A stretch of 64,000 nucleotides of DNA, from assembly GCF_041886205.1 (NCBI RefSeq), contig NZ_CP169029.1; one strand, written 5' to 3'. The notes beneath the pieces are model-generated. The model had not been told where the DNA came from, made no database searches, and saw only the letters and a program-made list of their open reading frames with translations. Position numbers and translations under genes: made by a program. The stretch comes from Escherichia coli. GTDB lineage: Bacteria > Pseudomonadota > Gammaproteobacteria > Enterobacterales > Enterobacteriaceae. Positions 3,001 through 38,117 of this stretch are shown here, one piece after another (the first letter of the stretch is position 1; each line of letters starts with the position of its first letter).

Positions 3001-3441
3001 CGCCGCGCACCAGCCACAGTGACTCGCTGCGGCTGTAGCCGTCCTCGCCGGGAAACAGCGTGCTCAAAGTGACAGGCTCCTGCCGCCGTTGTCAGCTGAG
3101 TATCAGTGCGTCATCGCGCAGCTGTAAGCGGATATCCGCAGGCGCTTTCAGCCGGGGCCGAGGCTCCCCACCGGCGCGGGCGTTCTGGTCCGGTAGCTGC
3201 TGTAGGTGCGGGAGAGGATGAACGGCAGCGGGCGCGGGCAGGGCGATGTCGGTCTCGCCGGGCAGGCACCTTCGCACCGAGCAGCGGATTGACCGGATGG
3301 CCGGACGTCACCCCGCCGGACACGCCGAACAGGCCACGCCGGTGGGCGCGCCGATGCGCACCCGGCTGCCGAACCCTCGGACAATGCCGCGGCCGCCTTG
3401 CGGGTCATGTCGCCCTGACGCGCCGCCGGTTTTCCGCTCAT
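1..3441 (-). pseudogene. Rhs-family YD-repeat protein, N-terminal and core part only; C-terminal toxin domain lies beyond the window start; reading frame broken many times
   Basis: Minus-strand ORF starting at 3441 begins MSGKPAARQGDMT (typical Rhs N-terminus); downstream fragments carry YD-repeat sequence (e.g. YGYDDKGRLTGE, RYEYNAAGDLTAV, ITTPDGR); fragments lie in different frames. Confidence 0.8.
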
Positions 3442-3479
3442 GAATCAATTCCTCTTTCTGCTTATTAATAATGGCTTGT

Positions 3480-5693
3480 CTGTTACTGCACCAGTACCGT
3501 TTTAACAGGTGCACCCGACCCTAGTACTGCTCGCATATCCGGCGTATCCGGGGGGTGAATCTTTCGGCATCAGGCGTCATCCGGTGCGGGATCGTCGAGG
3601 CTGCCACAGTTCCAGTTAATCAACTGGCGCAGTCACCGTTCACCTGCTCGACTCACCCTGCCAGAGTGAATGTGCGTGCCGTTGAGAAAGATTGCTGCCG
3701 TCCTTCGTCAGCACCAGCCTTGCCTCACCACAGCAGAGCTCCAGATGCCACAGGCGAGATAAACTCGCGGTCTGCCCGTGTGTCAGTCCTTCATTCGTCT
3801 TCTACCACCGGTGAAAGGCGGCGTGATTCCCCACATTGACGTCTGTAGCCCAGCCCGACCCTGAACCAGTGATCCGAAGCAGCCCTGCCTGTGAGGACTG
3901 CAACAGACGCCACCGAGGTGTGGTCGTAATGCCGCCTACCGTCGTCTGGTACGCCCACCGTCAGCGCACGAACGAGTCGCCACCGTTTCCACTCTGAACA
4001 GAACCCACGTTGATGATCTGGTTACCGCCCACCGTCTCCACACTGGTTCATCCCCCACTCGTCTGTATCTGATTAACGCCAATGTTCTGGATCTGGTTAT
4101 TGGTACCGGCGATCGCCTGGTTGTTGCCAATGGTCTCGGCATGGTTGTTTATCACATCCGTGGTGCGGTTATTCAGCACCTCAGGTGTTCATCTGTCTTC
4201 TGCGCGTGGATGTAGACCTGTTCTTTCCCTGTCGCATCGTCAAACTTCAGTTCATTAAACCCGCTGCCCGTATACGTTTTCGAGCGGATGGTCATCTGCG
4301 TCTTCGTTCCGGCAGGCTGCCGGGTGTGCGGTTTTCCTGGTGGTAGGTACGCCCCATAATGATCGGCTGGTCCGGATCGCCGTTGAGGAAGTCCACAATC
4401 ACCTCCTGACCCACACGCGGTATCGCCAGGTGGCCAAAACCGGTGCCTGCCCACGCCTGTGCCACACGGATCCAGCACGAACTGTCTTGGTCTGCCGGGT
4501 TATAACGGTCCCAGTTGAACTTCACCCGCACGCGACCATGTTCGTCGCAGAAGATTTCCTCGCCTGCCGGTCCTGTCACGACAGCGCTCTGCGGGCCGTC
4601 AACCAGCGGTTTCAGCAACGGCTGTGGTCGCCATGTTCTGTCTGCCGGGATCACCGCAAAATGGTTATCCAGCGCCGTCCCCGCTCCCTGCCGTCCTGGC
4701 ACCGCCTGTGGCTGTTCGCCGTGCAGTTCACTTGCCACCACCTGCCATTCCCGGTTCAGGTTCGCCTGCGGATGCCCCGTCAGCACAATTCGCCGTCCCG
4801 GCCATATCTCCGGCGAGCGGCTTGTTCCCCGCGCGGTTTCTGCGTTGTTGCGCCAGCCGTCCATCTGCCAGCGGGCAAAGTTCTGCCCGTGGGCACTCTC
4901 GAAACGTCCGGGGTAGTCATACACTTCATACTGCGTGCGCTGGTAGTCCTGGTGCTGGCCTTCCTGTTCAAAACGTCCGGCCCAGCCGGGTCGCTTAAAG
5001 GTGTAGTCTTTGTGTTCACCACGGAAGAAGGGCGGATTTGTGCGCTGTAGCGGAACTGGCTGATGCAGAGGGTGCTCACCTCGGTACGGGTGTTCGGATT
5101 CCAGGGATTTCAAAAGATTCGGGCAGATAACGCGACTGTGTCGCACAGCACCAGGCTCTGGTCGGTACTTTTGTAAGCATGCTCCTCATAAAAGAAGATG
5201 CCTTCCTCCGCCGCCATCCGGCACAGGAAATCGTAATCAGTCTCACCGTACTGGACACAAAACTCACGGGAAGGATGCGGCTCGCTGAACAGCGGACTCC
5301 ATTCGGTCACCCCGTTTTCCTGCAACATCGTGCCGAGGATGCTTTCGATGTCCTCGTTCTGGAAGATACGGAAGTTCTGGCGCAGACCGGCACGCCACAG
5401 CGGCGGGTGCACCTTCATGCTGTACAGCATCTGGTTTTTGTCGTTCTCCCCCAGTTCAAACCAGGTCACCACACCTTCACCCGGCGCTGTACGTCATCGC
5501 CCTGCCATACCGTCAGGTAGGCCATTTTGTCCAGCACCTGCGCAAATTCAAGGGAGAGAAACTGCTGGCTGACCAGAGAGAGATCGAGGGAAAAAAGCGA
5601 AGAGAGTGACTGGTTCAGATGAAAGGAAACCACCGCAAACGCATCCGGTGGCAGGCCGTCCACTTCCAGTGTGAAACGTAATCCGGTTGACAT
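3480..5693 (-). pseudogene. vgrG: VgrG spike protein (TssI), frameshifted; 3' end approximate
   Basis: Fragments at 5466-5693, 5110-5472, 4292-5146 and 4173-4478 (minus) read MSTGLRFTLEVDGLPPDAF..., ...GRTYHQENRTPGS..., MTIRSKTYTGSGFNELKFDDATGKEQVYIHAQK, matching VgrG gp27/gp5 modules; frames differ between fragments. Confidence 0.8.
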
Positions 5694-11729: not shown

Positions 11730-12817
11730 ATGGAAATGGACGGAAAGAATCGGGCAGCATCCTCTTATCTGAGTCCGGGAAATCCCCCGGCAGATAAAGA
11801 GCAGAATGATCCGCTGGCACAGGTTTTCCATAATGCCTGCTCTTACAATTTTTTTGCGATGGCGGGCTCGTTGCACCGCCTGGCAAAGGGTGAAAGGGGA
11901 CGCCAGAATTATCCCTGCGTGACGATCCGGCACAGGAAACCCTGCGTTTCAGCGCCGATGCCAGCCTTGCCTTCCCGTGCAGTGATATCAGTGCACTGAA
12001 ACGGGATACGTCAGGGGCATTCAGGATGACCACCACCTTTATGGGGTTACAGGGGAGCCAGTCGCCTCTCCCCGGTTATTACCTCGATCACCTGGCCTGG
12101 AAAGCGGTACATGAACAAAGTCCGGTAGGTGATTTTCTGGATATGTTCAGCCACCGCCTGACCCAGTTTGTCTGGCATATCTGGCGTAAGTACCGCTATC
12201 ACATCAGTTTTCGTAACGGCGGTGTGGATGCGTTCTCGCAGCGCATGTACTCCCTTGTCGGGCTGGGCCACCGCCAGCTTCGCGATAAGCTGGCGATTAA
12301 TCACAGCAAAATGCTGGCGTATTCCGGGATCCTGGCAAATCCGGGATGATCCCCGGAAATAATCTGTGGCCTGGTGTCCCACTGCTTTGATTTGTCAGAA
12401 GTGACGCTGCAAAACTGGCAACGTCGCAAGGTGGATATTGAACCGGATCAGCAAAATAGTCTGGGGAGCTATTCTCTTAAAAATGGCGAAAAACTGGCGG
12501 GAAGATCGGTACTGGGCAACTTTGTTCTGGGTACACGAGTGCCCGATCTCAGCGGAAAATTCCAGCTCAGTATTACCAGCCTGACCCGAAAACAGTTCCT
12601 CTCTTTCTGCCGTCTGGCGAAAACTTCCTGCCACTGACGATGTTCGTGTCCTTCATCCTGCGCGATCAGCTTGCCTGGGACTTACATCTGGGGCTGGCGC
12701 CGGAGCAGGTGGGCGCAATGCGCCTGGGCGATAACAAAAGTGCGCTGCTGGGCTGGACCAGCTTCCTCGGCACACCGGAAGAACGACCCTCAGTCACCAT
12801 CAGGGTACGGTCGTAAA
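11730..12817 (+). pseudogene. tssG: TssG baseplate protein, frameshifted
   Basis: Follows tssF; N-terminal fragment contains LAQVFHNACSYNFF (TssG-like YNFFQ motif region); ~360-codon slot; pieces at 11730-11999, 12026-12349, 12374-12637 in different frames. Confidence 0.55.
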
Positions 12818-12819
12818 TT

Positions 12820-14121
12820 ATGATAATCACGGAGCAGAATATGCCGGAAGAGAAACTACAGACGCTTTCATTGCAGGTCATTAACGGCAGTGAGCTGGAA
12901 AGCGGACGGGCGGCGCGCTGTCTGTTCACACAGCAGGGAAATGTCGGCCATGGCCCCGAATGCCACTGGTCGGTACAGGATCGTCAGCAGAGCATTCCGG
13001 CCCAGGCTTTTACCGTTATCCTGCACGATGGCACATTTTGTCTGCGCCCGCAGACGGCACAACTGTGGCTGAATCAGGCAAAAGTCACAGCAACATCAGA
13101 CCTAATACAGTTGCGCCAGGGCGATGAGATCCAGATCGGACGGCTGATGGTGAGGGTTCATCTGAACCGGGGAGATATTCCCCATTACGATGAGGAAATG
13201 GCCACTCCCGAAACCATCGTTACCAATCGCGATATGCTCACGGATACCCTGCTATCAACGGAGGGTACGCCACACTATCCGGGAATGACTCACCGGCACC
13301 AACTTGCAGACACCGTGGTAAACGGTTTTTCTGCCGATCCACTCCAGGCACTTCAGTCCGAAAGCCTGATTACCACGGGCGATCCGCTTTCAGGCATTGC
13401 GGCTGTCCGGCCATCGGCACCGCTGTCCGATCCGGCAAGTAATGGGGGGATCAATACTCCGTTTATGGATCTGCCGCCCATTTATGCCAGCCCCGGCGAT
13501 CGTAATGACGACGTCTCTGCGGCAGAAATGGCGCAACGCCACCTTGCGGTCACCCCCTTACTGCGCGGTCTTGGCGGCTCGCTTACCATGAGCAATTCCG
13601 ACGATGCGGATGATTTTCTGGAGGAGGCCGGACGAACGTTACAGGCCGCAATAAAAGGTCTGCTCGATTTGCAGCAGCAGCGTAACAGCCTCTCAGACAA
13701 ACATTTGCGCCCGCTGGAAGATAACCCGCTGCGCCTGAACATGGATTACGCCACCGCGCTCGACGTAATGTTTGCCGAAGGTAAAAGCCCGGTACATCTG
13801 GCGGCTCCCGCCGCCGTCAGTGAAAGCCTGCGCAATGTCCGCCACCACGAAGAAGCTAACCGGGCAGCGATTGTGGAGTCGCTTCGTGTCCTGCTGGATG
13901 CTTTCTCACCACAAAATCTGCTGCGCCGCTTTGTGCAGTACCGCCGCAGCCATGAACTGCGCCAGCCGCTGGATGATGCCGGAGCATGGCAAATGTACAG
14001 CCATTATTACGAAGAACTGGCCTCCGATCGCCAGCAGGGGTTTGAGATGCTGTTTAACGAGGTCTACGCCCAGGTCTATGACCGGGTGCTTCGTGAAAAA
14101 CAGCGGGAGCCGGAAGCATGA
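12820..14121 (+). CDS. tagH: T6SS-associated FHA-domain-like protein (TagH-like), 433 aa, intact
   Basis: Single long ORF; N-terminal region LSLQVINGSELESGRAARCLFTQQGNVGHGPECHWSVQD...TVILHDGTFCL resembles the FHA fold pattern of TagH/Fha proteins; embedded in T6SS operon; stop overlaps tssJ start (ATGA). Confidence 0.5.
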   Translation: MIITEQNMPEEKLQTLSLQVINGSELESGRAARCLFTQQGNVGHGPECHWSVQDRQQSIPAQAFTVILHDGTFCLRPQTAQLWLNQAKVTATSDLIQLRQGDEIQIGRLMVRVHLNRGDIPHYDEEMATPETIVTNRDMLTDTLLSTEGTPHYPGMTHRHQLADTVVNGFSADPLQALQSESLITTGDPLSGIAAVRPSAPLSDPASNGGINTPFMDLPPIYASPGDRNDDVSAAEMAQRHLAVTPLLRGLGGSLTMSNSDDADDFLEEAGRTLQAAIKGLLDLQQQRNSLSDKHLRPLEDNPLRLNMDYATALDVMFAEGKSPVHLAAPAAVSESLRNVRHHEEANRAAIVESLRVLLDAFSPQNLLRRFVQYRRSHELRQPLDDAGAWQMYSHYYEELASDRQQGFEMLFNEVYAQVYDRVLREKQREPEA

Positions 14122-14642
14122 ACAGGAAGGCGTTTCTGGCCTGCGTGCTGATGTGCGTCATATTAACCGGCTGCGAAACGGCGAAAAAAATCAGTGAGGT
14201 GATCAAAAACCCGGATATCCAGGTCGGGAGCCTGAAGGAGCAACCTTCGGAAATAACCGTCACCCTGCTGACCGAACCGGACACGCATACCAATGCGGAA
14301 GGTGAATCAGCCGCCGTGGATGTGCAACTGGTGTACCTGACTGACGACTCAAAATTGCTGGCAGCCGACTATGACCAGATAGCCAGTACGCCGCTACCGG
14401 ATGTGCTGGGTAAAAACTATATCGACCACCAGGATTTCAACCTGTTGCCGGACACCATCAAAACCCTGCCGCCGGTAAAGCTGGATGAGAAAACGCAGTT
14501 TATTGGTGTCGTGGCCGATTTCTCCGATGACCAGGCCACTGAATGGGAACAAATCGAGACGGTGGAAGGAACCGGCCACCATTACCGCCTGCTGGTGCAT
14601 GTACGTCAAAGCAGCATCGAAATGAAAAAAGAGGATGAATAA
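14118..14642 (+). CDS. tssJ: TssJ outer-membrane lipoprotein, 174 aa, intact
   Basis: Signal peptide with lipobox (MNRKAFLACVLMCVILTGC); size and position before tssK typical of TssJ. Confidence 0.7.
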   Translation: MNRKAFLACVLMCVILTGCETAKKISEVIKNPDIQVGSLKEQPSEITVTLLTEPDTHTNAEGESAAVDVQLVYLTDDSKLLAADYDQIASTPLPDVLGKNYIDHQDFNLLPDTIKTLPPVKLDEKTQFIGVVADFSDDQATEWEQIETVEGTGHHYRLLVHVRQSSIEMKKEDE

Positions 14643-14644
14643 TT

Positions 14645-15977
14645 ATGGCAACCACCCGCAACAAGGTGATGTGGCAGGAAGGGATGCTGATGCGCCCACA
14701 CCATTTCCAGCAACAGCAGCGTTACAACGACTACCTGGATAACCAGCGTTTCCGGGCCATGAATGATTTATCCTGGGGATTTACCGAACTCACCCTCAAC
14801 AATGAACTGCTGGCGCAGGGTAAGATCATGATTGACAGCGCGTCAGGCACACTGCCCGACGGCACCGTCTTTTCTATCCCCGACCAGGACGCACTGCCCG
14901 ATCCGCTGCACCCGCAAAATTTTCCGGACGAAAGAAGCCGCAATATCTACCTCGCTCTGCCGGTCGCCAGTGATGTGAGAAATGAAATCAGCGACGGACG
15001 GCGAATCGGGCGTTACCGGCTGAATTATGCCGATGTCCGGGATTTGCATTCAGAAGAAGGTGACGCGCGAACATTGACGCTGGGTCAACTGACGCCGCGC
15101 ATTATGAGCGGTGCAGAAGATATGAGCGCCTATATTACGCTCCCGCTTTGCCGTATCAGCGATCGCCATGCCGATGGCTCCCTGACGTTGGATGACGATT
15201 TTATCCCCTCCTGCCAGAATATTCAGGTCAGTAAGAAACTGCGTGTTTATCTCAAAGAGGTACAGGGGGCCATTGGCGGACGGGCAAGCGATCTGGCAAA
15301 CCGTATTGGCTCTCCGGCGCAGAGCGGCATCGCGGATGTGGCGGAATTTATGATGTTGCAGTTACTTAACCGTAACCAGACCCGGTTTACCCATCGCGCC
15401 CGCCGATCCCAGCTCCACCCGGAAGATTTCTACCTTGATCTTGCTGGGTTGCTGGGTGAACTGATGACCTTTACCGAGCCGTCGCGCCTGCCCTGCCCGC
15501 TTGATGTGTATGATCATCATGATCTGACCAAAACATTTAAAACACTGTTACCGGAAGTCAAACGGGCGCTACATACCGTACTGTCGCCAAGAGCGGTCAA
15601 TCTGCCGCTGCATCTGCGTGACGGTATCTGGCAGGCCGATATCCATGACACAGAACTGCTGCAATCTGCCACCTTTGTGCTGGCCGTGGCGGCAAACGTG
15701 CCGGTCGATCAGATCCAGCGTCAGTTTATCCAGCAGTCGAAAATTTCCTCGCCGGAAAAAATCCGCAATATGGTCAGTGTGCAGATCCCCGGTATTCCAT
15801 TGCGTGCCACTTATGGCGGCTCCCCGCCAGCTTCCTTATCATTCCGGGTTCAGCTATTTCGAACTCGACAAGAGCGGACAGGCCTGGACAGAAATGGCTG
15901 CCGCCGGGGCCGTTGCACTGCATGTATCCGGCAGTTTCCCGGATCTGAACATGCAACTGTGGGCGATAAGAGGGTAA
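14645..15977 (+). pseudogene. tssK: TssK baseplate protein, one apparent frameshift near the 3' end (~15.8 kb)
   Basis: N-terminus MATTRNKVMWQEGMLMRPHHFQQQQRYNDYLDNQRF... is TssK-like; C-terminal TssK sequence (FELDKSGQAWTEMAAAGAVALHVSGSFPDLNMQLWAIRG) is in the frame of ORF 15618-15977, not the frame of the long ORF. Confidence 0.8.
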
Positions 15978-15981
15978 GACG

Positions 15982-16742
15982 ATGGATGAGGGGTCACTGT
16001 CTCTGCCACCATTTACCGGATACGACGAAAAAAGCCAGCGCAACTACCATCTCGCGCTTCGTGGCAACAGCCTGAATCCGATGATCGACGCGGCCACGCC
16101 GCTACTCGGTATGGTAATGCGCCTTTCAACCATGAACAGCCAGACGATGCCGGAGCATCTTTTTGCTCAGGTGGTGACGGATGTTCAGGCCGTGGAGCAA
16201 CTGCTTCAGGAGCAGGGCTACGAACCGGGCGTGATTATCTCGTTTCGCTACATCCCCTGCACGTTTATTGATGAAGCTGGCGCTCGGTAACGGCTGGTCA
16301 AACAAGAACGAGTGGATCAAGCAGTCATTGCTGGTCCATTTCCACAACGAAGCCTGGGGTGGAGAGAAAGTTTTCATCCTGCTGGAGCGCCTGATCCGTG
16401 AACCCAAACGTTACCAGGATCTGCTGGAATTTCTCTGGATCTGTTTTTCTCTGGGATTTCGCGGGCGCTACAAAGTGGCAGCACAGGATCAGGGGGAATT
16501 TGAGCAGATCTACCGCCGTCTGTACCACGTTCTGCATAAACTGCGCGGCGATGCCCCTTTCCCGCTGTTACACCAGGACAAAAACCCAGGGCGGGCGTTA
16601 TCAGCTCATCAGTCGCCTGACTGTTAAACATATTTTTTGTGGTGGCGTTGTCGTGCTGGCGTTGTTTTACCTGTTCTATCTGTTGCGGCTGGACAGCCAG
16701 ACGCAGGACATCCTGCACCAGCTAAACAAATTACTTCGATAA
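15982..16742 (+). pseudogene. tssL: TssL (DotU-like) membrane protein, frameshifted
   Basis: N-terminal DotU-like sequence (NPMIDAATPLLGMVMRL...), C-terminal hydrophobic segment (VVVLALFYLFYLL) in a different frame; three ORF pieces. Confidence 0.7.
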
Positions 16743-16750
16743 GGACGTTT

Positions 16751-19521
16751 ATGATCCAGATTGATCTTCCCACGCTGGTAAAACGGCTGAACCTGTTCTC
16801 CCGCCAGGCGCTGGAGATGGCCGCCTCTGAATGTATGAGTCAGCAGGCAGCGGAAATTACCGTCAGCCATGTGCTCATTCAGATGCTCACCATGCCACGC
16901 AGTGACCTGCGGGTTATTACCCCGCCAGGGCGATATTGGCATGGAAGAAGTTGCGCCAGGCGCTGACGGTAGAGAACTACACGACCGCCCGTTCTGCGGA
17001 CAGCTACCCGGCGTTTTCCCCGATGCTGGTTGAGTGGCTGAAAGAGGGCTGGCTGCTGGCGTCGGCTGAGATGCAGCACAGCGAACTGCGCGGCGGCGTG
17101 TTGCTGCTGGCCCTGCTGCATTCGCCGCTGCGTTATATACCGCCTGCTGCCGCCCGGCTGACCGGCATGAACCGTGACCGTCTGCAAAGGACTTTGTGCA
17201 ATGGACACAGGAGTCGGCGGAATCAGTCGTGCCGGATGCAGACGGTAAAGGCGCAGGCACACATGACGGACGCCTCTGACACCCTGCTTGCCCGCTATGC
17301 CAAAAACATGACCGCAGACGCCCGTAACGGCAGGCTTGACCCGGTACTGTGCCGCGACCACGAAATCGACCTGATGATCGACATTCTCTGCCGCCGCCGT
17401 AAAAACAACCCGGTGGTGGTGGGCGAAGCGGGCGTGGGCAAAAGCGCACTGATTGAAGGGCTGGCGCTGCGCATCGTGGCAGGCCAGGTGCCGGACAAGC
17501 TGAAAAACACCGATATCATGACCCTGACCTGGGCGCATTGCAGGCCGGGGCGTCGGTGAAGGGTGAATTCGAAAAACGTTTCAAAGGGCTGATGGCGGAG
17601 GTCATTTCCTCCCCGGTGCCGGTCATTCTGTTTATCGACGAAGCACATACCCTGATTGGCGCGGGCAACCAGCAGGGCGGGCTGGATATCTCCAACCTGC
17701 TCAAACCGGCGCTGGCGCGCGGCGAGCTGAAAACCATCGCCGCCACCACCTGGAGCGGTACAAAAAATACTTCGAAAAAGATGCCGCCCTGTCGCGCCGC
17801 TTCCAGTTGGTGAAGGTCAGCGAACCCAACGCTGCCGAAGCCACCATTATTCTGCGCGGTCTGTCGGCGGTCTATGAACAGTCTCACGGCGTGCTGATTG
17901 ATGATGACGCCTTGCAGGCCGCTGCGACATTAAGCGAGCGTTATCTCTCCGGGCGTCAGTTACCGGACAAAGCGATTGATGTGCTGGATACCGCCTGCGC
18001 CCGTGTGGCCATCAACCTGTCGTCGCCGCCGAAGCAAATCTCGGCGCTGACCACTCTGAGCCACCAGCAGGAGGCGGGAAATTCGCCAGCTTGAGCGCGA
18101 GCTTCGCATCGGACTGCGTACCGACACATCACGGATGACCGAGGTGCTGGTGCAGTATGATGAAACGCTGACGGCGCTGGATGAACTGGAAGCGGCCTGG
18201 CACCAGCAGCAGACGCTGGTCCGGGAGATTATTGCGCTGCGCCAGCAGTTACTGGGCGTGGCAGAGGACGATGCGGCGCCGTTGCCGGACCGCAGATACC
18301 GTGGAGGATACGCAGCCAGAGTCAGAGTCAGAACAGGATAATACCGAGTGCCGTACCGGCTGGATGAGGCCGACAGAGAACAGCCGGAAGAGACCGCTGA
18401 AACAGTTTCCCCGGTACAACGTCTGGCGCCATCTCACTGCCGAACTGGACGCCCTGCATAACGACCGGTTGCTGGTTTCCCCGCACGTCGATAAAAAACA
18501 GATTGCGGCGGTGATTGCCGAATGGACCGGCGTGCCGCTTAACCGCCTGTCGCAGAATGAAATGTCGGTCATCACCGACCTGCCAAAATGGCTCGGCGAC
18601 ACCATCAAGGGCCAGGACCTGGCGATTGCCAGCCTGCACAAACACCTGCTGACCGCACGCGCCGACCTGCGCCGTCCGGGACGCCCGCTGGGCGCGTTCC
18701 TGCTGGCTGGCCCCAGCGGCGTGGGTAAAACTGAAACCGTCCTGCAACTGGCAGAGCTGCTCTACGGCGGTCGCCAGTACCTGACCACCATCAATATGTC
18801 CGAGTTCCAGGAGAAACATACCGTCTCGCGACTGATTGGTTCGCCTCCGGGCTACGTTGGCTACGGTGAAGGCGGCGTACTGACCGAAGCGATTCGCCAG
18901 AAACCCTACTCGGTAGTACTGCTCGATGAAGTGGAAAAAGCGCACCCGGATGTGCTCAACCTGTTCTACCAGGCGTTCGATAAGGGCGAAATGGCAGACG
19001 GTGAAGGCCGCCTGATTGACTGCAAAAATATCGTCTTCTTCCTGACGTCCAACCTCGGCTACCAGGTAATAGTCGAGCATGCCGATGACCCGGAAACCAT
19101 GCAGGAAGTACTGTATCCAGTTGTGCTGGCCGACTTCTTCAAACCTGCCCTGCTGGCGCGTATGGAAGTGGTGCCGTACCTGCCGCTGTCGAAAGAGACG
19201 CTCGCCACCATCATTGCCGGGAAACTGGCCCGCCTGGATAACGTGCTGCGCAGCCGCTTTGGCGCGGAGGTGATTATAGAACCGGAAGTGACGGACGAAA
19301 TCATGAGCCGCGTCACCCGCGCGGAAAACGGCGCGAGGATGCTGGAATCGGTCATCGACGGCAAGATGCCGCCGCTGCTCTCCCTGCTGCTGTTGCAGAA
19401 AATGGCGGCGAATACGGCGGTTGCCCGGATTCGGTTGTCGGCAGTGGACGGCGCATTTACGGCAGACGTGGAAGATGCTCAGAACGACGAGTCCGTCACA
19501 AAGGATGAAACGGTTTTATGA
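16751..19521 (+). pseudogene. clpV: ClpV (TssH) AAA+ ATPase, several frameshifts
   Basis: Two AAA+ Walker A motifs (GEAGVGKSA in fragment 16936-17559; GPSGVGKTE in fragment 18181-19521); ~920-codon span split over at least five ORF pieces in different frames. Confidence 0.85.
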
Positions 19522-20261
19522 GCAGGTTGCGCGTTTTCCGGCAGACAGGATGGTTTATCGCGGGCCTGATGACGGGCTTACCCGCCACTGCCGCGCCCGC
19601 AGAAGCATCGTCAATGGCCGGTGTGGCGGTTGCCGTCGCCACCACGACCCCGCCGGATGCGACAGCCACGTTACAGGCCATGCAGTCCTGTCGGCGGGAG
19701 TCCGCGGCGCTGGAGCGGCTTGACTGCTATGACCGCCTGCTGGCACCGCTGTCCCCGTCAGGGTTTGACGGGGCGCTGGTCAAAGCCGGTTTTGTGGGCG
19801 AAGCCTGGACCCGCGCCACAGAACAGGAAAAACACCGCCAGGGCAACACCACAGAGCTGCTGGTGACGCAGGTGCCGGGGGAGCGCCCGACGGTGGTGAT
19901 AACCACCCCGGCTATCGGTCATGTTCCGCCACGCCCGGTGCTGATGTTCAGTTGCGTGGACAATATCACCCGGATGCAGGTGGCGCTGATGCACCCTCTG
20001 GATGTCCATGATATCGCCGTCACTCTGAATGCCGACAACCGGGCATTGCGCAGCCACTGGTTTGTGCGCGAGAACGGCACCCTGCTGGAGTCCAGCCGGG
20101 GGTTATCCGGGATTGATGAAATTAAGCAACTGTTCGGCGCAAAAACGCTGACGGTGGATACCGGCGCAGACAATGCCGCCGGAAAGCTGACCTTTAACAT
20201 TGACGGGCTGGCAAGGGCGATTGCTCCCCTGCGCGATGCCTGCCACTGGGCGGGAGAGTAA
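19518..20261 (+). CDS. Predicted secreted/periplasmic protein of unknown function, 247 aa, intact, T6SS-cluster accessory
   Basis: Intact ORF with N-terminal signal-peptide-like hydrophobic segment (FIAGLMTGLPATAAPAEA); start overlaps clpV stop (ATGA) suggesting translational coupling. Confidence 0.55.
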   Translation: MSRLRVFRQTGWFIAGLMTGLPATAAPAEASSMAGVAVAVATTTPPDATATLQAMQSCRRESAALERLDCYDRLLAPLSPSGFDGALVKAGFVGEAWTRATEQEKHRQGNTTELLVTQVPGERPTVVITTPAIGHVPPRPVLMFSCVDNITRMQVALMHPLDVHDIAVTLNADNRALRSHWFVRENGTLLESSRGLSGIDEIKQLFGAKTLTVDTGADNAAGKLTFNIDGLARAIAPLRDACHWAGE

Positions 20262-20265
20262 AAAT

Positions 20266-21679
20266 ATGGCAATGGACTTACGCGATCCGAATGTCTGGAT
20301 ATCGCACCTGCTGGAAAACCTGCCGGAAGAGAAACTGGCATCGGCGCTGAAAGATGACAACCCGAACTGGGAGTATATCGACGGCGAAATCGTCAAGCTG
20401 GGATCGCTGGCCCACAGTCAACTGGATATCCCGGAACTCCAGCGCCGGGGGCTGGTCATTCTGGCTTCGGAGAGTAAGGATTTTCGTCTGCTGGCGCATC
20501 TGCTGAGAACCCTGCAACACGCCGGTGATCCTCACTCCCGCATTGCGCCTGCTGGCGCTGTATGTGGAGCATTACTGGGCGGTGGCTGCGCCGCAGAATA
20601 TGGCGCATAAAAAACGCTTTGCCAGCCAGGTCATTAAACGCTTTGAAACAGGTATTGAAGTTTTTTCACAGAACGCCGCCACAGCGCAGCGCGATGCGCT
20701 GTCAGGGGAACTGGCAAAACTGGCGCAATGCTGGCAGTCACATAACGCCCCGGAACTGGCACAGGCTACTGATGATCTTTTTGCCCCGTACCAGCGTGCG
20801 TTTAATCGTGCGGCACCGGTTCCTGTCCCCACTCCGGCGGCCTCCGGTAGTTCACCACAGACCACCGCCACGTCTGAAAGCGGCGTGACGCAACCCAGTG
20901 CTCCGGCTCCCCAAATCGTCATCGACAGTCACGACGACAAAGCCTGGCGCGACACGCTGTTAAAAGTGGCGGCCATTTTATGTGAACGCCAGCCGGATTC
21001 ACCGCAGGGCTACCGTCTGCGCCGCCATGCGCTTTGGCAGAACATCACCAGTACGCCCCAGGCGGAAAGCGATGGCCGTACTCCACTGGCTGCGGTCTCC
21101 GCCGATATGGTGGCAGATTACCATGCTCAGCTCGGTAGTGCCGATATGGCGCTGTGGCAGCAGGTGGAGAAAAGCGTACTGCTGGCTCCTTACTGGCTGG
21201 ATGGTCACTGCCTTTCTGCACAGACGGCGCTGCGTCTGGGTTACAAACAGGTGGCAGACGCCATCCGCGATGAGGTCATCCGCTTCCTTGAGCGTCTGCC
21301 CCAGCTTACCGGGCTGCTGTTTAATGACCACACACCGTTTATCAGTGAGCAGACGAAACAATGGCTGGCAGCTTCGCCCGACGCCAAAGTTGCACCGGTT
21401 GCGCAAATCGGTGAGGAATCGAAGGCAGCCAGAGCCTGTTTTGCTGAGCAGGGTCTGGAGGCGGCGCTGCGATATCTGGACATGCTACCCGAAGGCGATC
21501 CCCGCGATCAGTTTCACCGCCAGTACCTTGCCGCACAGTTGACGGAAGAGGCGGGGCTGGTACAGCTTGCGCAGCAGCAGTACCGGATGTTGTTCAGGAT
21601 GGGATTGCAGATGATGGTGGCAGACTGGGAGCCGTCCCTGCTTGAGCAGCTAGAACAAAAATTCACGGCAGAACAATAA
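20266..21679 (+). pseudogene. tssA: TssA (ImpA N-terminal domain) protein, one apparent frameshift near 20.53 kb
   Basis: N-terminal fragment MAMDLRDPNVWISHLLENLPEEKLASAL...SESKDFRLLAHLL (ImpA_N-like) in one frame, remainder (384 aa ORF 20525-21679) in another. Confidence 0.7.
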
Positions 21680-21697
21680 AAGAGAACAGGAGTTTTT

Positions 21698-24600
21698 GTG
21701 TTCAGATTACCAACACCCCGACTACTCAGCGGACTCAAATCAGCCCTGCGACCGGCGATGCCCCGGTTTAAAGTCTCTGCTTTCTGGCTGCTGATACTGG
21801 CGTGGATTTTTCTGCTGGTGTGGATCTGGTGGAAAGGCCCGACGTGGACGCTGTATGAAGAACAGTGGCTCTAAACCACTGGCGAACCGCTGGCTGGCAA
21901 CGGCGGCGTGGGGGATTATTGCCCTGATGTGGCTTACCGTCCGGGTGATGAAGCGCCTGCAACAGCTTGAAAAACAGCAAAAACAACAGCGCGAGGAAGC
22001 CGTTCGATCCGCTCAGTGTGGAACTGAACGCCCAGCAGCGTTACCTCGACCGCTGGCTGCTGCGCCTGCAACGCCATCTCGACAACCGCCGTTTCCTGTG
22101 GCAATTGCCGTGGTATATGGTCATCGGCCCGGCGGGCAGTGGCAAAACGACACTGCTGCGCGAGGGGTTTCCGTCAGACATTATTTATGCCCCGGAGGGC
22201 TCGCGCGGCGCAGAACAACGCCTGTACCTTACGCCCCATGTCGGTAAACAGGCGGTGATCTTTGATATCGACGGCACACTCTGCGCTCCCGCTGATGCGG
22301 ATATCCTGCATCGCCGTCTGTGGGAACATACCCTCGGCTGGCTGAAGGAAAAGCGCGCGCGCCAGCCCGCTGAACGGGATTATTCTGACACTCGATTTAC
22401 CCGATCTGCTGACCGCAGACAAGCGCCGCCGTGAGTATCTGCTACAGACGCTGCGCAGCCGCTTGCAGGATATACGCCAGCATCTTCACTGCCAGCTACC
22501 GGTTTACGTGGTACTGACCCGGCTTGATTTATTGCAGGGTTTTGCCGCCCTGTTCCAGTCCCTGAACAGACAGGATCGTGATGCGATTCTGGGTGTCACG
22601 TTCACCCGCCGTGCCCATGAAAATGATGACTGGCGAACAGAGTTGAATGCTTTCTGGCAGACATGGGTGGATCGAATGAATCTGGCGTTGCCGGATCTGA
22701 TGGTCGCTCAGACTCACACCCGCGCGTCTTTATTCAGTTTTTCCCGCCAGATGCAGGGAAGCCGTGAACCCCTGGTGTCACTGCTTGAAGGTCTGCTTGA
22801 CGGCGAAAATATGAACGTGATGCTGCGTGGTGTCTATCTCACCTCGTCACTGCAACGCGGCCAGATGGATGACATCTTTACCCAGTCCGCCGCCCGCCAG
22901 TACCGGCTGGGCAATAACCCACTGGCGTCCTGGCCCCTGGTGGACACCGCGCCTTATTTCACCCGCAGCCTGTTCCCGCAGGCATTACTCGCAGAGCCTA
23001 ATCTGGCAACGGAGAGCCGTGACTGGCTGATGCGTTCCCGTCGCCGCCTGACGGTTTTCTCTGCCACAGGCGGCGTGGCGGCACTGCTGCTCATCACCGG
23101 CTGGCATCACTATCACAACGGTAACTATCAGTCCGGCATCACCGTGCTTAAGCAGGCCAAAGCCTTTATGGACGTGCCGCCTCCGCAGGGGAAAGACGAC
23201 TACGGCAACCTGCAACTGCCGCTGCTGAACCCGGTACGCGATGCCACACTGGCCTATGGCGACTGGGGCGACCGCAGCCGTCTGGCCGATATGGGACTGT
23301 ACCAGGGACGACGTATCGGGCCTTATGTGGAACAGACCTATCTGCAACTACTAGAGCAGCGTTACCTGCCCTCGCTGTTTAACGGGCTGGTCAAAGCGAT
23401 GAACGCCGCGCCGCCGGAGAGTGAGGAAAAACTCGCCGTGCTGCGCGTGATGCGAATGCTGGAGGACAAAAGCGGACGCAATAATGAGGTGGTGAAGCAG
23501 TATATGGCAAAACGCTGGAGCGAAAAAGTTCCACGGCCAGCGTGATATCCAGGCACAACTGATGTCCCATCTTGACTACGCGCTGGCTCATACTGACTGG
23601 CATGCAGAGCGTCAGGCGGGCGACGGTGACGCCATCAGCCGCTGGATGCCATATGACAAGCCCGTGGTATCAGCACAGAAAGAACTGAGCAAACTGCCTG
23701 TCTACCAGCGGGTTTACCAGAGCCTGAAAACGCGGGCGCTGGGCGTTCTTACCTGCTGACCTCAATCTGCGTGACCAGGTAGGGCCAACCTTTGACCAGG
23801 TCTTTACATCTGCCGATGACAACAAACTGGTTGTTCCACAGTTTCTTACCCGTTACGGCCTGCAAAGCTATTTTGTAAAACAGCGCGATGAACTGGTTGA
23901 ACTGACGGCAATGGATTCCTGGGTACTCAACCTCACCCGCAGTGTGAAATACAGTGACGCCGACCGCGCGGAAATCCAGCGCCAGTTGACCGAGCAGTAT
24001 ATCAGCGACTACACCGCTACCTGGCGAGCCGGGATGTGACAATCTGAATATCCGCAATTTTGAGTCCATTGGACAACTGACCGGGGCGCTGGAGCAGGTT
24101 ATCAGCGGCGACCAGCCTTTGCAGCGGGCGCTGACTGTGTTGCGTGACAACACACAGCCAGGCGTCTTTTCTGAAAAACTTTCTGCCAAAGAACGGGATG
24201 AGGCTCTGGCAGAACCGGACTACCAGTTGCTCACCCGCCTCGGGCATGAATTTGCCCCGGAAAACAGTACTCTGGCAGTACAGAAAGACAAAGAAAGCAC
24301 GATGCAGGCCGTGTATCAGCAACTCACCGAGTTGCACCGCTATCTGCTGGCAATTCAGAACGCGCCTGTACCAGGGAAATCGGCGCTGAAAGCCGTGCAG
24401 TTGCGGCTTGATCAGAACAGCAGCGATCCGATATTCGCCACCCGCCAGATGGCAAAGACACTGCCTGCTCCGCTCAACCGCTGGGTTGGCAGACTGGCTG
24501 ACCAGGCCTGGCATGTGGTGATGGTGGAGGCCGTTCACTATATGGAAGTGGACTGGCGCGACAGCGTGGTGAAACCGTTTAACGAGCAACTGGCAAATAA

Positions 24601-25228
24601 CTATCCGTTTAATCCGCGTTCTGCACAGGATGCCTCACTGGATGCCTTCGAACGCTTCTTTAAACCGGATGGCATACTGGATACCTTCTACCAGCAGAAC
24701 CTGAAGCTGTTTATCGACAATGACCTGAGTCTGGAGGATGGCGATAACAGCGTCATTATTCGCGAAGATATTATTGCGCAACTGAAAACCGCGCAGAAAA
24801 TCCGTGACATCTTCTTCAGTAAACAGAACGGTCTGGGAACATCCTTTGCCGTGGAAACGGTATCGCTCTCCGGCAACAAACGCCGCAGTGTACTGAACCT
24901 TGACGGCCAGTTAGTCGATTACAGCCAGGGGCGCAACTATACCGCCCATCTGGTCTGGCCTAACAATATGCGCGAAGGCAACGAAAGCAAACTGACGCTC
25001 ATCGGCACCAGCGGCAACGCGCCGCGCAGTATCAGCTTCAGCGGGCCGTGGGCGCAGTTCCGCCTTTTCGGGGCCGGACAACTGACCGGAGTTCAGGATG
25101 GCAACGTTACCGTGCGCTTTAGCGTGGACGCTGGCGCGATGACCTACCGTGTGCATACCGACACTGAGGATAACCCATTCAGCGGTGGGTTATTCAGCCA
25201 GTTTGGTCTGTCAGACACACTGTACTGA
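21698..25228 (+). pseudogene. tssM: TssM (IcmF-like) membrane-complex protein, several frameshifts
   Basis: N-terminal transmembrane segments, Walker A motif GPAGSGKTTLL (fragment 21967-22434), ~1170-codon span ending with 369 aa fragment 24119-25228; at least five frame changes. Confidence 0.8.
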
Positions 25229-25238
25229 GGAGGCAGGG

Positions 25239-26593
25239 ATGGATAGTAACGGACTGACACAAACTATCGTTACCGGCAGTGACCCGCGCGGGGCTGCCGG
25301 AATTCAGTGCCATCCGCGAGGAAATAAACAAAGCCAGCCACCCGTCACAGCCTGAGCTGAACTGGAAACTGGTGGAGTCGCTGGCACTGGCGATTTTTAA
25401 AGCCAACGGTGTGGATTTACACACCGCCACCTACTAGACGCTTGCCCGGACACGGACACAGGGACTGGCGGGATTCTGCGAAGGTGCGGAACTGCTGGCG
25501 GCAATGGTAAGCCACGACTGGGATAAGTTCTGGCCGCAGGGCGGCCCGGCGCGTACTGAAACGCCGGACTGGTTTAACTCCCGAACCGGCAATATTCTGC
25601 GTCAGCAAATCTCCTTTGCGGAATCCGACCTACCACTGATCTACCGCACAGAGCGGGCATTGCAGCTTATCTGCGATAAGCTCCAGCAGGTGGAACTGAA
25701 GCGCGTTCCGCGCGTGGAGAATCTGCTCTATATTTATGCAGAACACGCGTAAACGGCTTGAACCCCAGACTGAAGAGTAACACTGAGAACGCCGCACAGA
25801 CCACGGTCAGAACGCTGATTTATGCCCCGGAAACACAGGCATCTTCCACACCAGAAGCGGTAGTGCCTCCCCTGCCCGGCCTGCCTGAGATGAAAGTGGA
25901 AGTGCGCAGTCTGACAGAGAATCCCCCACAGGCCAGTGTGATAAAGCAAGGCAGTACGGTAAGAGGGTTTATCGCAGGGATCGCCTGTTCAGTGGCTGTC
26001 GCCTCAGCATTGTGGTGGTGGCAGGTCTATCCGGTGCAGCAGCAACTGTTACAGGTTAACGACACCGCTCAGGGCGCAGCAACGGTGTGGATGGCCTCAC
26101 CTGAACTCGAAAACTATGAGCGCAGGCTGCAACAACTTCTTGATACCTCCCGGTACAGCCGCTGGAAACCGGGATGCAGATGATGCGTGTTGCCGACAGT
26201 CGCTGGCCGGAAAGCCTGCAACAGCAACAGGCCTCGACACAATGGAATGAGGCACTCAAAACCCGCGCACAGAGTAGCCCGCAGTTGCGTGGCTGGTTGC
26301 AGACCCGCCAGGACTTACATGCTTTTGCAGATCTAGTGATGCAGCGCGAGAAAGAGGGACTAACCCTTTCCTATATCAAAAATGTCATCTGGCAGGCGGA
26401 GCGGGGACTGGGGCAGGAAACACCCGTTGAGTCTCTGTTGACGCAGTACCAGGATGCCCGTGCGCAGAAGCAGAATACAGATGCGCTGGAAAAACAAATT
26501 AATGAGCGACTCGAAGGCGTGTTAAGCCGCTGGCTGCTGCTGAAGAATAACGTCATGCCAGAGGCGGCAACCGGTACCACGGCCGAAAAATAA
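25239..26593 (+). pseudogene. Second ImpA_N-domain T6SS accessory protein (VasL/TagA-like), frameshifted
   Basis: Alternate-frame translation near 25.3 kb gives LPEFSAIREEINKASHPSQPELNWKLVESLALAIFKANGVDLHTATY (ImpA_N signature); followed by a hydrophobic segment (FIAGIACSVAVASALWWW) and a C-terminal region; fragments in three frames. Confidence 0.5.
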
Positions 26594-26616
26594 TTATTTA
26601 ATTAAAGGAGATTATC

Positions 26617-27099
26617 ATGGCAAATATAAGTTATTTATCTTTGAGTGGAGAGACACAAGGGCTGATTTCAGCAGGTTGCTCAACGCTTGATTCTGTCGGA
26701 AACAAAGCGCAGCCAGAACATAAAGATCGAGATCATGGTTTATGCGTTAATGCATTCCATCTCAAGAAGTCAAAATGTCAATCATCATGAATTAATTATC
26801 ACCAAACCGGTTGATAAATCCTCACCATTGCTGGCAAAAGCACTTAGTGACAATGAAAAAATGGCAATATGTGAATTTATACTCTACCGAACCAGTAAAG
26901 CGGGTATTTACCAGCCTTATTATAAAATAAATCTGTCAAAAGCCCGAATATCAAGTATTGATTTTGTCACACCGCATGCTGTCCTGGAAAAGAACTGGAA
27001 CCACAGGAGAGAATTGCCTTTATTTATGAAGATATTTCCTGGGAGCATACGTTAGCCGGTACGAATGCAATGAGTAAATGGCAGGATCGTGTACAGTAA
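26617..27099 (+). pseudogene. hcp: Second Hcp (TssD) copy, two apparent frameshifts
   Basis: Strong RBS (aaggag) then MANISYLSLSGETQGLISAGCSTLDSVGNKAQPEH; continues in other frames as ...SISRSQNVNHHELIITKPVDKSSPLLAKALSDNEKMAICEFILYRTSKAG... and ...RIAFIYEDISWEHTLAGTNAMSKWQDRVQ*, all matching Hcp. Confidence 0.8.
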
Positions 27100-27142
27100 C
27101 TTACTGTAATAACATAATAAATTACTATTGCGGAGAGATAAA

Positions 27143-28039
27143 ATGGCTGGTTTAAGGAATAACAACAACACACAGAATGCACAGTGGGCTGATTATGTGG
27201 GTGACATTCTTCGGGGGGCTCAGCCGATAAACCAGCTAGTACCTCAGCACCCTTATCTTAACGACGTCCCACTCATTGATGAGTTAAGGCATCAGAACAC
27301 TCATCATGTTATTCTCTTGACACTTGATGTTGCAAAAAAAATACTCAGCCCAATAACATCATTTGATTACATTCATTTTATCACTACACATCCTTCAGGT
27401 ATAAAAGATACACTCGCCTGGTTAGTTAACGCGGGTAAATTAATGACTGAGTTTGATGACAATGGGAAAATTATATTTAACCTTAATGCCTTAAAGTATA
27501 CAAAAGCAAGTTACTTTGAAATACTTGGAGAGAAATATATAAAAATCACAACATCCAGCCCCTGGCTTTTAGAAAAGCTCGGTAAATATATTTTCTCTTC
27601 ACGAGCGCCTCAAGTTCTGGAACTCGCTATTGGCTGGCGAGGAGCTTTATCTGAATCAATAAAAGGAGTTAAGTTCTGTATCTGGTTTTCAGTAGCCTGG
27701 AGAACCATAGAATTTATTATGAGTTCAGAGCGAGATCTGGTTAATTTTCTTGGCGATTTTTCAATGGATGTGGCCAAAGCAGTTATAGCCGGTGGTGTTG
27801 CAACCGCTATTGGAAGCCTGGCTTCTTTTGCCTGTGTTAGCTTTGGCTTTCCAGTAATTCTTGTCGGAGGAGCAATTTTACTGACAGGGATAGTGTGTAC
27901 AGTTGTTTTAAATGAAATCGATGCTCAATGCCATTTATCAGAAAAATTAAAATATGCAATTAGAGATGGACTAAAACGGCAACAGGAACTTGATAAATGG
28001 AAAAGGGAAAACATGACTCCATTTATGTATGTTCTTTAA
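27143..28039 (+). CDS. Hypothetical protein with C-terminal glycine-zipper transmembrane hairpin; candidate Hcp-linked membrane-targeting effector
   Basis: Intact ORF (frame opens at 27128; ATG 27143 has a better RBS ggagag); AT-rich; C-terminal hydrophobic helices AVIAGGVATAIGSLASFACVSF and FPVILVGGAILLTGIVCTVVL; immediately downstream of hcp2. Confidence 0.6.
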   Translation: MAGLRNNNNTQNAQWADYVGDILRGAQPINQLVPQHPYLNDVPLIDELRHQNTHHVILLTLDVAKKILSPITSFDYIHFITTHPSGIKDTLAWLVNAGKLMTEFDDNGKIIFNLNALKYTKASYFEILGEKYIKITTSSPWLLEKLGKYIFSSRAPQVLELAIGWRGALSESIKGVKFCIWFSVAWRTIEFIMSSERDLVNFLGDFSMDVAKAVIAGGVATAIGSLASFACVSFGFPVILVGGAILLTGIVCTVVLNEIDAQCHLSEKLKYAIRDGLKRQQELDKWKRENMTPFMYVL

Positions 28040-28067
28040 CACTCCACCCGTGATATGAGGATTAACC

Positions 28068-28433
28068 ATGCGTTTACATGTTAAATTAAAAGAGTTTCTT
28101 TCGATGTTTTTTATGGCCATATTATTTTTCCCTGCATTCAATGCTTCTTTGTTTTTTACCGGAGTTAAACCTCTATATTCAATAATAAAATGCTCCACGG
28201 AAATATTTTATGATTGGAGAATGTTGATTCTGTGCTTTGGTTTCATGTCGTTTTCCTTTTTAAATATTCATGTAATTTTACTTACGATAATAAAATCATT
28301 CTTAATCAAAAAAACGAAGGTAGTCAATTTCGCCACAGACATAAACAATACAGCTAACTCTTATATTTTTACTAATAGCTATCGTAATAGCACCTTTAAT
28401 AGCTCCTTTTGTCACAGGATATGTCAATGCTAA
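28068..28433 (+). CDS. Small hypothetical inner-membrane protein (121 aa); candidate immunity protein
   Basis: Intact ORF with RBS (gagga) and two hydrophobic segments (FFMAILFFPAFNASLFF; MLILCFGFMSFSFLNIHVILLTII); directly follows the putative effector gene. Confidence 0.5.
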   Translation: MRLHVKLKEFLSMFFMAILFFPAFNASLFFTGVKPLYSIIKCSTEIFYDWRMLILCFGFMSFSFLNIHVILLTIIKSFLIKKTKVVNFATDINNTANSYIFTNSYRNSTFNSSFCHRICQC

Positions 28434-28703
28434 TTATCACCCCTGCGGTAATAATGCGGGGATTTTCCCAGCGAGCAATCTGATATTAAAAATGGCATGA
28501 AATGTAGTAACTGAATATATTTCTCGCAAGGAAGATTCAGCAGTTAAATAACTAAATATTCTAAAACAAACAGTTTTTAACTCCGGTATTCCATGTCCTT
28601 TCTTGCACTGTCTTTGTCAAGAAAGATTTCTTATGCAAAGAATTTTGTATTATTGCCGCCCAGAGATTCCTGGCGGCAGATAGAATCTATTATTGATAGC
28701 GAG

Positions 28704-29486
28704 TTAACCAAATCTTTTCACCATCGCTTTATAGGTCTTTTGCTTAAGTTGCATGATTTGCTGCTCTGTCATATCAGTCGTACTGGCTTCATTCTTGTCG
28801 GGCAATGGTGGAAGCACTTTATATTCATACTTCACCGGCGACCAGGTACGTAGCCCACTCACCTGTTGCCACATCCACCAGCGTGAAACGTACCAGGTAG
28901 CGCAGGGAGATAGCGTCGGTGAGTTTTTCATTTTTATAGTCGGACCATACTGTTGATTTCAGCGCAGAGTCATATTTTCCTGTCTGCAACGTATCCTGGA
29001 AAACAATAATCGCTTTCTGATGCCCTTTTGCAGCCCACAAAACGCAGTGCCTGCATCCAGTTCATATTCTCAGCACTGGCAACATCCTCGTTCTCATTTT
29101 TATCTTTGTTTTTGTTACAAGTCAGAGGCTTTTGCCTGTCCGGGATACTCAGAAAAGAACGTGGAAACAGTATAATATTTTCGCATCTCCTCCTGCATAA
29201 TGGTTTCCGGTGCGCGGTTGCCGGATTGAACAAGTATTACAGGAGAATTAAGGGGAACGCGGAACTCATCTCCATCAAGCGCAGCTTGAATATCCTCTTC
29301 GGATACGGCCAGAGTGGTTTCATTACCGAATAAATCTTTGTCTGTCAGTTGCTGGGGAGTGTTTTTATTAATATTACTTTGTGTGACTTGAGCTTTTTTC
29401 TTCTTTTCATCAATAGAAGATTCAGAGGCACATCCTGCAAGCAGCGAGAATAACACACATATGCAACAAAGCTTTTTTGAATTCAT
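28704..29486 (-). pseudogene. yafT: Lipoprotein YafT-like gene adjacent to aspV, frameshifted
   Basis: Minus-strand ORF from 29486 begins [21 protein letters not shown] (lipobox); continues in other frames down to 28704 (~261 codons total); position next to tRNA-Asp as for K-12 yafT. Confidence 0.65.
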
Positions 29487-29752
29487 AATTGGACACTCCC
29501 TCGCCTGTCATAATCATGGTAATGTTTAGCTAACGATTTTTAATTATATACTCCACTTGAATCAGAACAAACAAAAATAACAGTATATATAAATTCATTA
29601 AATCAATAGAAAAATGAAAATCATAACATTCAAATATATTTAAATTGAATGATTCGATAGTATGATTAAATATTAATGATATGGTCTACCATATGTGATT
29701 AACACATTTACAGCATAACAAAACCATAGACCGAAGAAATAGCGGGATTTAA

Positions 29753-29789
29753 ATGCAAAAAAAACCGCAAAATTAAAAATCTTGCGGTT
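29753..29789 (-). terminator. Rho-independent terminator downstream of aspV
   Basis: Inverted repeat aaccgcaa / ttgcggtt (29763-29789) followed on the minus strand by a T-run. Confidence 0.6.
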
Positions 29790-29816
29790 CTCTGAACTCA
29801 TTTTCATGAGTGAATC

Positions 29817-29893
29817 TGGCGGAACGGACGGGACTCGAACCCGCGACCCCCTGCGTGACAGGCAGGTATTCTAACCGACTGAACTACCGCTCC
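29817..29893 (-). tRNA. aspV: tRNA-Asp (GUC)
   Basis: 77 nt; reverse complement reads GGAGCGGTAGTTCAGTCGGTTAGAATACCTGCCTGTCACGCAGGGGGTCGCGGGTTCGAGTCCCGTCCGTTCCGCCA. Confidence 0.97.
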
Positions 29894-38040: not shown

Positions 38041-38117
38041 TGGCGGAACGGACGGGACTCGAACCCGCGACCCCCTGCGTGACAGGCAGGTATTCTAACC
38101 GACTGAACTACCGCTCC
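38041..38117 (-). tRNA. aspU: tRNA-Asp (GUC)
   Basis: 77 nt, identical in sequence to the aspV copy at 29817-29893; located just distal to 5S rRNA. Confidence 0.97.

Follow-up and report, generated by a model that had tools for sequence, protein, structure and literature searches.

Which gene lies between clpV and tssA in the T6SS island of this Escherichia coli stretch, and does its intact reading frame carry any meaning in an island whose other frames are mostly broken? Both questions were addressed in the window, i.e. the whole stretch of 64,000 nucleotides that was analysed. A sequence-only reading of the window had described at this place a 247-aa ORF with a signal-peptide-like N-terminus and an ATGA overlap with the clpV stop, and had left it unrecognised, as a possible accessory protein or substrate.

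Identity and genomic context of the ORF

The features at and around the ORF were as follows:

16751-19521, + strand: clpV (tssH), frame-disrupted according to its mapping to O103:H2, with 11 bases inserted and 6 deleted and the first stop at codon 72
19501-19505, + strand: putative Shine-Dalgarno-like AAGGA, 12 nt upstream of the vasI ATG, as read from the sequence
19518-19521, + strand: ATGA start/stop overlap of vasI with the clpV (tssH) frame, present in the sequence and annotated alike in O103:H2
19518-20261, + strand: vasI/tagO coding sequence, 247 aa plus stop, from the ORF list, PF11319, TIGR03360 and identity to WP_000088859.1
20266-21679, + strand: tssA (VasJ type), broken in two by a single inserted nucleotide at 20535, from mapping and domains

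The ORF at 19518-20261 is, with high confidence, vasI (synonym tagO), a conserved accessory gene that belongs to the E. coli T6SS-2 cluster but not to its core. Its product matched the NCBIfam equivalog TIGR03360 ("T6SS-associated protein VasI", labelled 'VI_minor_1') at 259.5 bits, the curated cutoff being 124.2, and across the full profile (positions 1-187 of 187), and the Pfam family PF11319 (VasI, formerly DUF3121) with E = 1.9e-53 and 181.3 bits against a cutoff of 26.5, over positions 2-184 of 184. It was also 100% identical to the RefSeq protein WP_000088859.1, annotated as vasI in E. coli O103:H2, and the two genes differed by three nucleotides, all of them synonymous. The exact protein was present on at least 1000 public contigs, where it is named VasI or TagO. 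Of 5426 complete E. coli genomes, 2956 carried the 16.5-22.5 kb stretch of the window, and its best matches (99.4%) had a vasI annotation at the position of the ORF. Published work uses the name tagO for the gene and E. coli T6SS-2 for the cluster (PMC10562709).

Beyond the VasI models, no Pfam family matched the ORF at E ≤ 1, and a PDB sequence search with VasI returned nothing at E ≤ 10. The VasI models were likewise the sole significant matches in Pfam and NCBIfam when homology to the 13 core families TssA-TssM was considered, in agreement with the earlier view that the gene is not a core Tss component. The two profile scores and the identity to an annotated VasI establish clear homology with a T6SS accessory protein already described, the very outcome that the sequence-only reading had named as its refutation; the suggestion of an accessory stands, that of a novel one does not. 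vasI is an already known gene, neither a new accessory nor a new substrate, and its importance as a finding is small, since thousands of E. coli genomes routinely carry it under the annotation vasI/tagO.

The ORF list and the flanking domains confirmed the placement of the 247-aa ORF between clpV and tssA. The ORF ending at 19521, which is the last clpV fragment, contained the AAA_2 and ClpB_D2-small domains, and the two ORFs downstream of vasI contained the ImpA_N and T6SS_VasJ domains, which together make up TssA. At the vasI start (GGTTTT-ATGA-GC), the ATG start codon given by the ORF list (19518-19520) overlaps the upstream TGA stop (19519-19521), and the O103:H2 reference locus shows the same 4-nt overlap (tssH 16254-19019, vasI 19016-19759). 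The overlap was thus correctly described, but the translational coupling to clpV that had been proposed with it is only nominal in the window, since ribosomes entering at the clpV start stop at codon 72, before they reach the overlap.

Some database VasI entries begin at Met33 (215 aa), which would drop the h-region of the signal peptide. This start was rejected, as the ATG start codon at 19518 yields the 247-aa protein annotated in RefSeq, keeps the signal peptide common to the Citrobacter, Salmonella and E. albertii homologues, and reproduces the kept overlap with the preceding gene. Two antisense ORFs, 19922-20341 (-) and 19761-20057 (-), had no Pfam family and were taken as GC-rich frame noise.

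The genes of the cluster in the window follow an order of the V. cholerae type, and the insertion site of the cluster is the aspV tRNA gene. In O103:H2 strain 12009, the order is tssB-tssC-tssE-tssF-tssG-tagH-tssJ-tssK-tssL-tssH-vasI-tssA-tssM-vasL-hcp, and the cluster adjoins tRNA-Asp. In three relatives with 28-43% identity, a contig look-up placed vasI directly 5' of a VasJ-type tssA, itself followed by tssM; the gene preceding vasI was clpV, or clpV plus the sigma-54 activator vasH, and was overlapped by vasI over 4-19 nt. A vasI inside a T6SS cluster, upstream of VasJ-type tssA and tssM, was therefore found in the window, in O103:H2 and in these three distant relatives. Conservation at this position, which had been proposed as a check on the gene, holds for the arrangement clpV-(vasH)-vasI-tssA-tssM in relatives with identities as low as 28%.

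The window contained two tRNA-Asp genes of 77 nt with identical sequence, one at the island boundary (aspV, 29817-29893) and one at the end of an rRNA operon (38041-38117). For the island (1-29800), the nearest counterpart was the one in B1 STEC, for example O103:H2. The core flank (29811-58005) showed ~99.9-100% identity to E. coli 6EVA and similar strains, and 6EVA-type strains carry a different T6SS cluster (long form of tssL, tagK, tagJ) at the same tRNA-Asp site. This pattern would fit a role of aspV as a hotspot at which alternative T6SS islands are exchanged.

Predicted export and fold of VasI

Three segments were distinguished along the protein:

19518-19592, + strand: predicted Sec signal peptide (heuristic), aa 1-25, with a basic n-region, a hydrophobic core and an A-T-A motif
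19593-19676, + strand: Ala/Thr/Pro-rich variable linker, aa 26-53, outside the VasI profile, pLDDT ~58-77
19677-20249, + strand: VasI domain, aa 54-244, a helical hairpin (C58...R67-L-x-C70-Y-D72) followed by an IalB-like beta-sandwich with C146 and C242

Relatives of VasI were collected by a search of 1.84 billion representatives, which yielded 318 sequences, of which 81 full-length members were aligned. Read heuristically, the N-terminus of the window protein consists of a basic n-region (MSRLRVFRQTG) and a hydrophobic region (WFIAGLMTGLPATA), with putative cleavage sites between A-T-A and A or between A-E-A and S. In this allele, the h-region reaches only moderate hydrophobicity. An N-terminal hydrophobic 12-residue window (mean Kyte-Doolittle of at least 1.6) was present in 76 of the 81 homologues, and together with the heuristic reading it bears out the signal-peptide-like N-terminus noticed at the outset. 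The N-termini of close relatives are canonical signal peptides; across the homologues their sequences differ while the layout stays the same: some basic residues, then a hydrophobic stretch, then a small-x-small site. A lipobox was flagged by regular expression in 2 of the 81 sequences, and the linker preceding the C...RLxC[YF]D motif varied in length.

Nine columns of the alignment were invariant (C58, R67, C70, D72, C146, W181, G195, C242 and W244), and all of these residues, including the four cysteines, were present in the window protein. Membership in the VasI family is thus supported by sequence, position and invariant residues. VasI would be exported by Sec, with cleavage by signal peptidase I after A25 or A30, and would fold in the periplasm with two disulfides formed by the four invariant cysteines.

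An AlphaFold2 model built on the 81-member alignment had a mean pLDDT of 86, with values of at least 90 at about residues 95-245. The signal peptide and linker were disordered and of low confidence in this model. Next came two short helices, which hold C58 and C70, and then another helix; a beta-sandwich with some nine strands and a C-terminal helix beside C242 made up the rest. The predicted fold is accordingly a helical hairpin plus an IalB-like beta-sandwich. The closest solved fold was IalB of Bartonella henselae (PDB 3dtd; PF06776), a likeness of fold only, at ~10% sequence identity; no match of VasI to the IalB profile (PF06776) was obtained in Pfam at E ≤ 1. VasI further differs from IalB in its T6SS context and in an extra helical hairpin, stapled by cysteines, at the N-terminus. 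The fold match names no activity, as IalB itself has no defined mechanism. Chain A of PDB 8z5n, a periplasmic ring component of the Vibrio sodium-driven flagellar motor, was also similar to the model (9% identity, moderate Z), and this likeness may be taken as a lead, not as evidence for the function of VasI.

Frame disruption of the island and the intact vasI frame

Mapping of 22 O103:H2 island genes onto the window left only three with an uninterrupted frame, namely tagH, tssJ and vasI, so that the earlier remark that vasI is among the few intact genes of the island proved accurate. The other two lie together:

12841-14642, + strand: tagH and tssJ, the only other intact island genes (FHA/T6SS_FHA_C and T6SS-SciN domains)

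The remaining 19 genes were frameshifted, including clpV, tssA, tssM, tssB/C, tssE/F/G, tssK/L and both hcp genes, with first stops at codon 72 in clpV, 115 in tssA, 29 in tssM and 215 in tssC. Flanking housekeeping genes were all intact (9 of 9).

Indel density was patchy along the island (~15/kb at 5.9-12.6 kb, none at 12604-15808, 5/kb at 15.8-19.1 kb). The 3.2-kb stretch 12604-15808, which holds tagH, tssJ and most of tssK, showed no indel and six substitutions relative to O103:H2, an indel-free gap far longer than the average rate of the island predicts. Further upstream, the Rhs core and VgrG genes (366-5693) differed from O103:H2 by hundreds of substitutions and indels, far more than the structural genes, and their mapped frames also had early stops; such high divergence is expected for variable effector modules.

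The spectrum of the island changes was unusual. Between 5899 and 29800, 145 indel events were counted against 129 substitutions relative to the best reference, with 152 bases inserted and 24 deleted. About half of the inserted bases had no identical neighbour, and many insertions were single non-homopolymer bases. The adjoining 8.6-kb housekeeping flank (29.9-38.5 kb) had one indel against 132 substitutions, so that the indel excess is confined to the island and biased towards insertion. Natural gene decay, by comparison, normally proceeds mostly by substitutions and with a bias towards deletion. The indel spectrum of the island is therefore atypical of natural pseudogene decay, which makes an unpolished or corrupted stretch a serious possibility: the indels may be an artefact of assembly or polishing, or an artificial perturbation. 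This version of the island was absent from the 5426 complete RefSeq E. coli genomes, the best matches reaching 99.4% (16.5-22.5 kb) and 96.8% (6-12.5 kb), and neither of the frameshift-specific ORF products at 18181-19518 and 14645-16072 was on record. Given this unnatural-looking spectrum, the frameshifts call for verification before the island genes are described as pseudogenes. Whether they are artefacts or not, the identity of the ORF as vasI is unchanged.

The weight of the intact frame was assessed with a chance model in which 44 indel events were placed at random in 15809-29800. The event rate over this stretch is 3.14 per kb, giving a probability that 744 bp remain untouched of 0.10 by formula and 0.093 by random placement (vasI untouched in 9.3% of trials); over 19123-29800, with 2.53 events per kb, the probability is 0.15. 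At least one of the ten genes in 15809-29800 was untouched in 58% of trials, and several further indel-free gaps of 1.2-1.3 kb exist. Nor is vasI spared elsewhere: strain RM9513 carries a tagO-tssH deletion (PMC10562709), and many VasI entries in databases are truncated or fused products. The intact vasI frame is what chance would give and is no evidence of selection; should the frameshifts be real, the small vasI gene would just have escaped a hit so far.

Selection could nevertheless be invoked, with vasI held intact for a T6SS-independent role, either in the envelope and host interaction or in phage defence like that of the VasI-fold protein of SDIC4. That vasI is one of three intact genes among 22, and that all three of its nucleotide differences from O103:H2 are synonymous, would fit such a role, as would the VasI-like fold reported in the anti-phage system SDIC4 (bioRxiv 10.1101/2024.01.28.577318). 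However, three synonymous changes carry no statistical weight, and escape by chance has a probability of 0.09-0.15 for vasI and of 0.58 for some gene in 15809-29800. The proteins of SDIC4 have no detectable sequence identity to T6SS VasI according to the same preprint (bioRxiv 10.1101/2024.01.28.577318), and the defence profiles of PADLOC-DB 2.0, a library that SDIC4 postdates, gave no family matching VasI at E ≤ 1. The gene itself is lost or fused in other E. coli, and with clpV truncated at codon 72 its coupling, and probably its expression, are compromised in the window. Maintenance by selection is thus extremely unlikely, and the VasI of the window is a bona fide T6SS form.

Proposed function and comparison with known systems

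Among VasI members, VCA0118 of V. cholerae is the sole one with a published deletion phenotype. Its deletion left the secretion of Hcp and VgrG-1 at wild-type level, abolished virulence towards amoebae and reduced the killing of E. coli (PMC3166118). VasI has been measured as a stable component together with other T6SS proteins (PMC6565705), and its function is still called poorly understood or unknown in reviews and in a preprint of 2024 (bioRxiv 10.1101/2024.01.28.577318). No mechanistic study of VasI/TagO beyond that of Zheng et al. (2011) was found in the literature, nor was a published biochemical function, partner or localisation.

With slightly better than even confidence, VasI is proposed to be a periplasmic helper that improves productive delivery rather than firing. 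It would assist the envelope-spanning part of the machine and would not be needed for sheath contraction or for the release of Hcp and VgrG, but would raise the efficiency of cargo delivery into the target cell per firing event. Such a helper would account for the V. cholerae phenotype. Of the two options raised in the sequence-only reading, the periplasmic accessory is thus the likelier one, on the grounds of the predicted signal peptide and the four invariant cysteines, and the same two features disfavour a substrate.

The V. cholerae authors themselves favoured a role as effector or adhesin (Zheng et al. 2011; PMC3166118), in which VasI would be a secreted T6SS substrate acting on or in the target cell. 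Retained Hcp and VgrG-1 secretion with lost virulence is indeed the phenotype expected of an effector (PMC3166118), and the closest solved fold, IalB, is that of a protein named for host-cell invasion. The conserved predicted Sec-type signal peptide and the four invariant cysteines nevertheless point to the periplasm. T6SS cargo is loaded onto Hcp, VgrG or PAAR in the cytoplasm. The traits expected of a cargo effector, lack of a Sec signal and linkage to vgrG, hcp, PAAR, adaptor or immunity genes, were not seen here, the N-terminus being signal-peptide-like and vasI having clpV and tssA as neighbours and lying among the structural genes clpV, tssA and tssM rather than beside a vgrG, PAAR or immunity gene. 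Moreover, the one deletion lowered the killing of amoebae and bacteria alike (PMC3166118), an uncommon pattern for a single effector. An effector or adhesin role therefore ranks second, is less likely than a periplasmic helper, and is very improbable.

With 19 of 22 island genes frameshifted, VasI cannot do the proposed helper job in the window, and because the surrounding system is disrupted, the window adds nothing on the biochemical role of the family.

Compared with Vibrio, where the order is vasG-vasH-vasI-vasJ-vasK, the E. coli gene belongs to the same family and likewise lies just 5' of tssA (vasJ). The two clusters differ in that the sigma-54 activator gene vasH stands between clpV and vasI in Vibrio but is missing from this place in the E. 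coli cluster. V. cholerae VCA0118, with 227 aa, is shorter than the 247-aa E. coli protein, and its export is also predicted. The VasI sequence diverges fast: in V. fluvialis it shares 47.8% identity with VCA0118, lower than any other value listed for that cluster. The closest known system is that of WP_000088859.1, the vasI of an E. coli T6SS-2, with which the window gene shares the protein, the 4-nt tssH overlap, the neighbours and the invariant residues; the gene itself shows no difference from that system, and only its context does, the island of the window being frame-disrupted.
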